From NCBI RefSeq assembly GCF_057098645.1, contig NZ_CM169472.1: DNA of 64,000 nucleotides; one strand, given 5' to 3'. The notes below the pieces were generated by a model. That model saw nothing but the letters and a program-made list of their open reading frames with translations. It ran no database searches and had not been told where the DNA came from. The position numbers and the translations under genes are program-made. Numbering within the stretch: position 1 is the stretch's first letter; each line of letters opens with the position of its first letter. Positions 60,413-61,331 of this stretch are shown here, one piece after another.

Positions 60413-61331
60413 ATATTATCACTTACTGGCGGCTCATACTGAGCTGGTTAATGCTGTGCACACACAAACAAGCAATTCCATTTGTAATGTGCCTCCCTGG
60501 CAGTTTCATCCGGAACCCGGACGAAAGTAAAAATGCATATGAGTTGCACTAAAAAAGCGACTCACATTGTTCCGTTATAATGCCTGAAGTAGATCACAGA
60601 ATATATCTTCAGGGATCGCATATCTATTAAGTTACTCACTCTTTTCTATTTATGACATGCGCGTGTTTGTATAAATGTAAATGTGAGTCCTTGTTCCACT
60701 CTCGTGCAGCATCGCTGGTCATACGCGAACACGTACAAACAGCAATGGTGAGGCGGCATCAAGAGCAGGGATCCGTCATTTATGCGAGCATTTTACCCCA
60801 AAAACCTTTTATTTATAAGGGTCATTGCGAATTATCTGATGCAAAGTTATGTTATGTTAGGCAAAGTAATCTTCTATTATTAATAAGCACATCAAAACCT
60901 TTTTGAATATTAAATAATAATTAATTAGCATCATCCTCATTCATTAATTCCGCTTAACAATAGTTTCACACCTTGCCCCCATTGCGACACCTCGGAAATC
61001 ATCACGCTGTTAAACTCTCCGTAATGCGGAAATATCATCATCGCGTTTCATTAGTGAATTCTTAAATGAGGCATTTTCACACAATTATCTTACAGATAAA
61101 AAAACCAGACCCACAATTAAGAATCAGAACAATTCACTATATAACACTGCATGTAAAGCATATACACCTCATTATTTTGTCATTATTAAGTTATTAACAG
61201 CACAATCGAGCCTTCCCCTCTGGCAAAATCTTATTCTGCAGACCTTCAAAACACCGTCCTGGGGGAGTACATTGTTCTAAGCTGACTTCCACGGCAGGGA
61301 GTGGCGATAACAGCAAAAAAGGTCAAGATTC

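Follow-up and report, generated by a model that had tools for sequence, protein, structure and literature searches.

What occupies the long stretch of DNA between the divergent genes lrhA and alaA, and why is so much of it kept? We examined this question in a 64,000-nucleotide (nt) stretch of contig NZ_CM169472.1 (assembly GCF_057098645.1), called the window below, whose positions serve as coordinates throughout. In it, lrhA (59474-60412, minus strand, 312 amino acids) and alaA (61332-62549, plus strand, 405 amino acids) are separated by exactly 919 bp (60413-61331). The lrhA product matches the NCBIfam LrhA equivalog model with 601 bits against a cutoff of 530, and the equivalent gap in Escherichia coli K-12 (NC_000913.3, 2406642-2407560) is without any RefSeq annotation. 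A first-pass annotation, made from the letters of the window, had called the gap unusually long and AT rich. This description holds: the gap tops the 52 gaps between open reading frame (ORF)-based genes in the window (median, 81.5 bp), and its GC content is 38.7%, against 51.6% window-wide, with values down to 30 to 34% at 60800-61200.

The gap is very probably a composite regulatory region of two divergent genes, consisting of an lrhA leader, a short alaA leader, and AT-rich promoter DNA. The lrhA leader covers just 371 of the 919 bp, and some 500 bp is promoter and regulatory DNA. Published work already explains the gap, as the long leader, its small RNA (sRNA) regulators, its Hfq dependence, and the length of the spacer are all in print. 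Published experiments supply the length of the lrhA 5' untranslated region (UTR), the effects of the sRNAs, the binding of Hfq, the 3' ends of the RNAs, and the transcription start site (TSS) of alaA. The present analysis contributes the conservation of the layout and of both promoters, the absence of ORFs, of Rfam families, and of repeats, and the counts of paired positions in the hairpin. The exact sRNA sites and the functions of the hairpin and of the nonconserved half of the spacer are inferred.

Persistence of the gap in E. coli and the Enterobacteriaceae

For the family comparison, we fetched 80 Enterobacteriaceae loci with an LrhA relative, one per species. In 78 of these species alaA is the divergent neighbor of lrhA. 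Their gaps measure 764 to 1,140 bp, mostly 920 to 1,010 bp, and share a three-part layout: an lrhA leader with a median length of 364 nt, an AT-rich spacer of about 500 bp, and an alaA leader of 45 to 51 nt. As gaps of this length recur in 78 species, the long gap is ancestral to the family. Sequence constraint is clear only for the core promoters of both genes, the part of the lrhA leader closest to the gene, and the hairpin at the 5' end of the alaA mRNA.

Within E. coli, the gap is a single-copy, chromosomal element. It is present in 5,425 of 5,426 complete genomes, always on the chromosome, and in 5,383 of them at least 80% of it lies in one piece. In about 42 of the 5,426 genomes, no single contiguous copy spans 80% or more of the gap. 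One of them is E. coli SCPM-O-B-12142 (NZ_CP144928.1, locus 2752-3666), a natural lrhA-null strain that has lost lrhA together with the nuo-proximal genes and the greater part of the gap; an IS1 insertion sequence (IS) adjoins the last 166 bp 5' of alaA, beside an IS5-disrupted elaD. The others may carry IS insertions like the published IS5 at position -137 of lrhA in a Keio strain. As for the window itself, its gap is 99.2% identical to that of the K-12 derivative TOP10 and 99.8% identical to that of an O145 strain. At 60733, in the lrhA leader, it reads GCTGTTTGTACG where MG1655 (the Term-seq sequence) has GCTGTTGGTACG, so the window is not from K-12 MG1655.

One alternative to a regulatory gap is a hidden coding sequence, either a small protein or a regulatory upstream ORF (uORF) in the lrhA leader. 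The gap does hold 14 ORFs of 25 to 84 codons. The longest, with 84 codons (60652..60906, plus strand), runs antisense across the lrhA TSS and promoter, and within the lrhA leader a 28-codon ORF on the minus strand (60423..60509) stops 10 nt short of the lrhA ATG. Each of the 14, however, is intact in only 0 to 8 of the 77 other species and has no family match. The homologous columns of the 84-codon ORF are intact in none of the 77, and this ORF has no match in Pfam or NCBIfam; it is not a gene, and the earlier judgment that the gap contains no convincing ORF stands. A further point against coding is that many genera have AAG or ACG in place of the AUG within AAAUGGAAUU. We consider a coding function of either kind extremely improbable.

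The lrhA promoter and leader

The lrhA 5' UTR has a published length of 371 nt (PMC10578931). Counted back from the ATG, it occupies 60413..60783 on the minus strand, which places the TSS at 60783. The sequence agrees with this: the predicted start base is an A, 7 nt downstream of the -10 hexamer of a core promoter that we read at 60790..60818 (minus strand; -35 TTATAA at 60818..60813, 17-nt spacer, -10 TAAAAT at 60795..60790). The promoter block CTTATAAAT...TTT.GG.TAAGAT is kept in all genera sampled, and the -10 columns of the 78 species read TAAGAT in 49, TAGGAT in 10, and TAAAAT in 8. The lrhA transcript thus starts inside the gap, 371 nt from the ATG, and not close to its start codon, so that the condition named in the first-pass annotation as refuting its idea does not hold. 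Transcript-end mapping, the check proposed in the first-pass annotation, divides its suggestion of long leaders on one or both sides: published data give lrhA the long leader of 371 nt and place the alaA TSS at -50, leaving alaA with a short one. The supplementary tables of SMRT-Cappable-seq and Cappable-seq have no entry for lrhA, alaA, or the gap coordinates.

The aligned lrhA leader measures 299 to 550 nt in the 78 species (median as above). Its conservation is concentrated next to the gene. The proximal ~75 nt is conserved, with 63 to 72% identity to E. coli at 60413-60480, and the distal ~300 nt (60483-60780) shows 12 to 45% identity with large indels.

Published experiments show that this leader is under sRNA control. 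UhpU represses an lrhA-lacZ fusion, as proven by compensatory mutations (UhpU M1 and lrhA-M1), and ArcZ and RprA repress the fusion too (PMC10578931). The same study reports ArcZ-lrhA chimeras in RIL-seq (RNA interaction by ligation and sequencing). McaS forms the most RIL-seq chimeras with the lrhA leader, yet it leaves lrhA-lacZ unaffected, and the authors raise the possibility that the leader inhibits McaS (PMC10578931). Control of lrhA by UhpU has since been confirmed, with sustained repression mediated by the conserved UhpU seed, and is reported to have an origin within Escherichia (PMC12704781). The idea that a long lrhA leader gives room for sRNA control is thereby borne out, by its 371-nt length, by repression through UhpU, ArcZ, and RprA, and by the Hfq-bound leader fragments described below.

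To place these sRNAs on the leader, we scanned for duplexes in 24-nt windows, scoring hybridization only, as unrestricted folding gave meaningless leader-long duplexes. The predicted UhpU site lies directly 5' of the ribosome-binding site (60424..60445, minus strand; -33..-12), where CGCCAGU would face UhpU ACUGGUG; the terminator-proximal UhpU seed scores -19.9 kcal/mol on the leader. For ArcZ, nt 59 to 79 are predicted to pair with -94..-78 (60490..60506, minus strand) at -19.7 kcal/mol, with CCAGGGAGG opposite the ArcZ seed UUUCCCUGG. A CACAGC motif (60453..60458, minus strand; -46..-41) is the complement of the GCUGUG seed common to RprA and McaS, and in 74 leaders its columns, the second C excepted, show either no variation or conservation of at least 90%. 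It falls within the RprA duplex predicted at -52..-30 of the E. coli leader, and the best RprA sites lie at -70..-50 in 64 of 81 species.

Hfq leaves its own trace on the leader. Coimmunoprecipitation with Hfq recovered 150- and 350-nt RNAs of the lrhA leader, first listed as "ig-lrhA-alaA"; an lrhA transcript of about 1.5 kb was up in an hfq mutant, and the Hfq-bound species were concluded to be leader fragments (PMC4152368). Two RNA 3' ends mapped by Term-seq fall in the leader (PMC7815308 supplement). One, MG1655 2406933 on the minus strand, is scored as "orphan" in two conditions and corresponds to 60704 (minus strand), at leader nt 80, in the 3' arm of a stem-loop predicted for leader nt 19 to 85. 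The other, MG1655 2406691 on the minus strand, is scored as not Rho dependent and corresponds to 60462 (minus strand), 50 nt upstream of the ORF at leader nt ~322; it would give a 5' fragment of ~322 nt, near the size of the 350-nt Hfq-bound band. No terminator-like site came up anywhere in the gap in a consensus scan, the 3' end at 60704 included.

These short RNAs raise the possibility that the gap encodes a trans-acting sRNA, either as an independent gene or as a stable leader fragment (to nt 80 or ~322) with the function of an sRNA or of a sponge, for instance one for McaS. The Hfq-bound 150- and 350-nt RNAs and the reproducible 3' ends at nt 80 and 322 favor it, and a sponge would suit an sRNA that dominates the lrhA chimeras without repressing lrhA. 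Against an independent sRNA gene, the consensus scan gives no second unit of promoter plus terminator: terminator-like sites are absent from the gap, and promoter-like sites are no more common than in shuffles. The gap has no Rfam match, and no conserved block has the anatomy of an sRNA. As to fragments, the first 80 nt of the leader are poorly conserved (27 to 37% identity), the 150- and 350-nt fragments are almost undetectable in total RNA (PMC4152368), and no trans target is known. We consider a trans-acting product unlikely. Nothing indicates the unannotated independent sRNA that the first-pass annotation had offered as one possibility; the short RNAs are pieces of the lrhA leader.

In another alternative, the leader would itself sense a signal, as a structured cis-regulatory RNA of the riboswitch, thermosensor, or attenuator kind. 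The E. coli leader does fold better than its shuffles (-112.4 kcal/mol; z = -2.76), and there are premature 3' ends inside it. An Rfam search with cmscan over 58800-62700, at E values up to 5, nonetheless gave three chance-level matches, none of them within the gap, and RNAalifold found 0 consensus pairs in the conserved proximal 98 nt. Two candidate hairpins, GCUC/GAGC and an E. coli hairpin at leader nt 292 to 326, found no support in pair counts; for the two E. coli leader hairpins, 80.8% and 51.8% of the cells pair, with no covariation and with values like those of shuffles on both-sides measures. The distal part of the leader, with its large indels, is unconserved in sequence. There is no intrinsic terminator, and the 3' end at -50 is not Rho dependent. 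The structured-RNA explanation is largely refuted, and we assign it very little probability. Comparison across the Enterobacteriaceae thus had two outcomes: the proximal leader is conserved in sequence, and covarying structure is absent from the lrhA leader. Lacking conserved structure, the proximal leader is better understood as an open platform on which Hfq and sRNAs can land than as a riboswitch.

The proximal leader carries one further conserved feature. Two GGA motifs, 17 nt apart, lie at 60477..60496 on the minus strand (-84..-82 and -67..-65), the second within the conserved AAAUGGAAUUGCUU. GGA motif 1 is kept in 70 of 81 lrhA leaders; 64 have the upstream GGA as well, spaced 15 to 18 nt apart in 58 of these. 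Per 100 nt of leader, GGA occurs 4.5 times at -105..-60, 0.96 times at -300..-110, and 0.19 times at -60..-1, that is, 4.7-fold more densely at -105..-60 than further upstream and almost never in the last 60 nt. The spacing lies within that of CsrA leaders (at least two GGA motifs, 10 to 63 nt apart), and the geometry of the pair is like that of CsrA dual-site binding. The motifs stand 65 to 84 nt upstream of the ORF, and neither overlaps the Shine-Dalgarno sequence. In the fold of the E. coli leader, motif 1 lies across the junction of a stem-loop, a hairpin that is not conserved among species.

A CsrA dimer site at the GGA pair is a tentative idea, to which we give about one chance in four. 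CsrA bound at the upstream motif could compete with ArcZ. We had reasoned that ArcZ pairing cannot explain the conservation of the upstream GGA; that argument is weakened, as 56 of 81 species show complementarity to ArcZ at -120..-90. Since ArcZ complementarity near the upstream GGA is also widespread, the CsrA and ArcZ explanations of its conservation are inseparable on present data. If true, a CsrA site at lrhA would link the Csr system directly to LrhA. The Yersinia LrhA orthologue RovM is controlled by the Csr system.

The lrhA ribosome-binding region (60413-60425, minus strand) has an invariant AGUGA about 9 to 14 nt before the AUG, in A/U-rich surroundings. AGUGA matches the canonical AGGAGG poorly, and lrhA may therefore depend on upstream elements of the leader for the initiation of its translation. 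On the other side of the gene, the nuoA-lrhA gap (58845-59473; 629 bp, 39% GC) is the fourth longest in the window. It holds a strong hairpin at ~59385-59437, with an A-run and a T-run on its flanks, and the lrhA 3' end mapped by Term-seq (MG1655 2405672, window 59443; PMC7815308 supplement). Two of the three weak Rfam matches, a greA leader and RcsR1, fall at ~59393-59543, far under their gathering scores.

The alaA promoter, leader, and 5' hairpin

The last ~120 bp before alaA are the best-conserved part of the gap (62 to 91% identity to E. coli). They contain a sigma-70 promoter at 61245..61273 on the plus strand, with -35 TTCAAA at 61245-61250, a 17-nt spacer, and -10 TACATT at 61268-61273. 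Across 78 species, most positions of the blocks CTTCAAA and GAGTACATTG, the latter of which holds TACATT, do not vary at all, and conservation is at least 90% at the others. Sequencing of 5' ends by 454 in a RegulonDB study placed the TSS of yfbQ (alaA) at -50, with the -35 box "GACCTTCAA" and a supporting count of 1 (PMC2760140). The resulting 5' UTR (61282..61331, plus strand) is about 50 nt long and has an AAGG Shine-Dalgarno sequence at ~61319-61322. With the TSS at -50 and aligned leaders of 45 to 51 nt in all 78 species, the suggestion of a long alaA leader is not borne out.

Could alaA have an additional long leader, or a distal promoter from which much of the spacer is transcribed toward it? 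Two candidates point that way. Shimada et al. propose TTAAGA-17-TATAAC, which we place at ~61118-61146 and which would give an alaA leader of ~180 nt, and a consensus promoter scan finds TTGTCA-18-CACAAT at 61177-61206. That scan gave no excess of hits over shuffles and failed to find either of the real promoters. Both candidates lie in nonconserved sequence, whereas the -35 and -10 elements that go with the mapped TSS at -50 are conserved over 78 species. In NZ_CP144928.1, an IS1-bounded deletion has spared only 166 bp upstream of alaA, which nonetheless keeps its annotation as an intact gene, in agreement with a proximal promoter. We judge a distal alaA start improbable. A sigma-54 promoter was also considered for CTGGCAAAATCTTATT upstream of alaA and was rejected, as the -12 GC is missing on inspection by eye.

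The alaA mRNA would begin with a hairpin (61281..61305, plus strand; GCUGACUUCC-ACGGCA-GGGAGUGGC, core CUUCCACGGCAGG). Across the species, 91.7% of its cells are paired, compared with 37 to 65% when the partners are slid, and one of its pairs occurs as AU 49 times, GC 14 times, and GU 11 times. In 78 species, the loop and inner stem (CUUCCACGGCAGG) either do not vary or are conserved to at least 90%, while the outer stem covaries. Both the minimum free energy fold and the centroid fold contain the hairpin and leave the ribosome-binding site unpaired. The interval that holds it had been predicted to be a "translational attenuator" for yfbQ (PMC2760140, Table S6); we dropped this label because the folds leave the Shine-Dalgarno sequence free.

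Lying near the mapped 5' end (TSS ~61282) and maintained in relatives, the hairpin has the properties of a 5'-terminal stem-loop, and most likely it protects the mRNA 5' end from decay. The ompA 5' hairpin is reportedly a stabilizing stem-loop of this kind (Emory, Bouvet and Belasco 1992). Like it, the alaA hairpin starts within 0 to 3 nt of the mapped 5' end, with an unstructured ribosome-binding site after it, and its stem is kept with some compensatory change. Unlike a purely structural stabilizer of the ompA type, it has a loop and inner stem that are invariant in sequence across 78 species, which exceeds what such a stabilizer needs. Instead of acting as a passive stabilizer, CUUCCACGGCAGG may be specifically recognized by a protein or an sRNA, though the odds are rather against this.

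The DNA between the start sites and the place of LrhA

The spacer between the two TSSs measures 498 bp in E. coli and 413 to 564 bp, at 32 to 43% GC, in 78 species. Its two halves differ. The AT-rich region upstream of the lrhA promoter (60830..60975) contains the conserved blocks TGTGAAA..TTGTTAAGC, TTAATGAAT, and AATTAATTATTATTTAATATT, and identity to E. coli is 54 to 69% at 60893-60962. The rest (60976..61244) is a nonconserved AT-rich spacer, with 21 to 48% identity and indels.

Several regulators are reported to act on this DNA. Shimada et al. (2014) list the "920 bp-long lrhA-alaA" spacer with csgD-csgB and nanC-fimB as long multifactor spacers and place binding of the RpoD holoenzyme, detected by SELEX (systematic evolution of ligands by exponential enrichment), in the lrhA-alaA gap. 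Published work further shows an OmpR chromatin immunoprecipitation signal that peaks in the gap, binding of Lrp to the lrhA promoter, and autoregulation of lrhA by LrhA. Transposons in the Serratia alaA-pigU gap raise PigU, and a transposon in the E. coli gap overexpresses lrhA, as has also been published.

We found nothing to suggest that the spacer came from elsewhere. A mobile-element or horizontal origin was rejected, given a single-copy chromosomal locus with no inverted repeats and no genuine plasmid match. No long or inverted repeats occur in the gap, the only match being 15 nt in two copies, and the five entries of the plasmid collection that match over the full length prove to be Escherichia records of 0.37 to 4.9 Mb. 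The two-copy match is the near-repeat TATTAAGTTA(C/T)T(C/A)AC (60625-60639), whose copies stand 559 bp apart in nonconserved AT-rich sequence. The sole tandem repeat of the spacer is an 11-nt unit, TCATTATTAAG, repeated 2.5 times at 61169-61196. Both are probably due to chance.

Taken as a composite regulatory region, the gap very probably works as follows. A minus-strand sigma-70 promoter starts lrhA at 60783 and yields the 371-nt leader. The last ~100 nt of that leader form a largely unstructured, conserved landing area for UhpU, ArcZ, and RprA, with McaS binding there without effect. By lowering LrhA synthesis, the sRNAs relieve LrhA repression of flhDC. Hfq destabilizes the lrhA transcript, whose 5' fragments, with ends at leader nt 80 and nt 322, accumulate. 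On the other side, the plus-strand sigma-70 promoter (61245-61273) would start alaA ~50 nt from its ATG, so that the mRNA would present the stem-loop first and keep its ribosome-binding site open. The ~500 bp between the starts serves as an upstream control region, mainly for lrhA, with LrhA autoactivation, Lrp, and OmpR as reported inputs, and it is in this DNA that IS and transposon insertions alter lrhA expression. The nonconserved half may contribute to this control.

A number of points weigh against this interpretation. It does not account for the retained length of the nonconserved half (60976-61244). The inputs known for the gap (LrhA, Lrp, OmpR, and RpoD) have no site at base resolution. 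The table of Shimada et al. has no H-NS flag on the lrhA-alaA spacer, so silencing by H-NS is unsupported. The alaA TSS is a single 454 entry with a count of 1 plus the conservation of its promoter, and Shimada et al. propose a different alaA promoter, the TTAAGA-17-TATAAC discussed above. The sRNA pairing coordinates are predictions, and the hybridization-only scan gives rival sites of similar energy elsewhere in the lrhA leader.

The lrhA leader resembles those of rpoS, flhDC, and csgD in E. coli, which are likewise long leaders of master regulators and hubs for several Hfq-dependent sRNAs. Pairing in the last ~100 nt of the leader is common to lrhA and hubs of this type. ArcZ and RprA also act on rpoS, and ArcZ acts on flhDC; LrhA belongs to the same motility and stationary-phase circuit. 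Unlike at rpoS, the tested sRNAs that have an effect on lrhA all repress and none activates, and McaS binds without measured effect. The lrhA leader also differs from all three in that ~300 nt of it is unconserved.

Orthologues of LrhA are encoded by hexA, pecT, pigU, and rovM (Photorhabdus, Dickeya, Serratia, and Yersinia), and in Serratia alaA is likewise the divergent neighbor. In the orthologue leaders, ArcZ pairs at a distance from the ribosome-binding site, 40 to 85 nt upstream of the AUG: at -50..-42 in Photorhabdus and -84..-58 in Dickeya, next to the -94..-78 predicted for E. coli lrhA. Insertions into the orthologue gaps raise expression of the regulator, as they do in E. coli. Control by UhpU, reported to have arisen within Escherichia, sets E. 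coli lrhA apart from its orthologues (PMC12704781).

As an intergenic region, the gap is comparable to the type-A divergent spacers csgD-csgB (755 bp) and nanC-fimB (1,456 bp) (Shimada et al. 2014), which are also long and multifactor. Like them, lrhA-alaA is AT rich and divergent, receives several transcription factor inputs, and is a target of ISs. Unlike csgD, it has far fewer mapped sites and no H-NS flag, and about 40% of the "spacer" is transcribed leader.

LrhA stands above flhDC, type 1 fimbriae, RpoS turnover, and, as recently recognized, CRISPR-Cas expression, which makes its control region biologically important. This importance is already recognized in the literature. What is added here is a family-wide view, in which the layout of the region is conserved across the Enterobacteriaceae though most of its sequence is not. 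The constrained elements, namely, the two promoters, the proximal lrhA leader, and the alaA hairpin, show where to dissect the regulation of lrhA.

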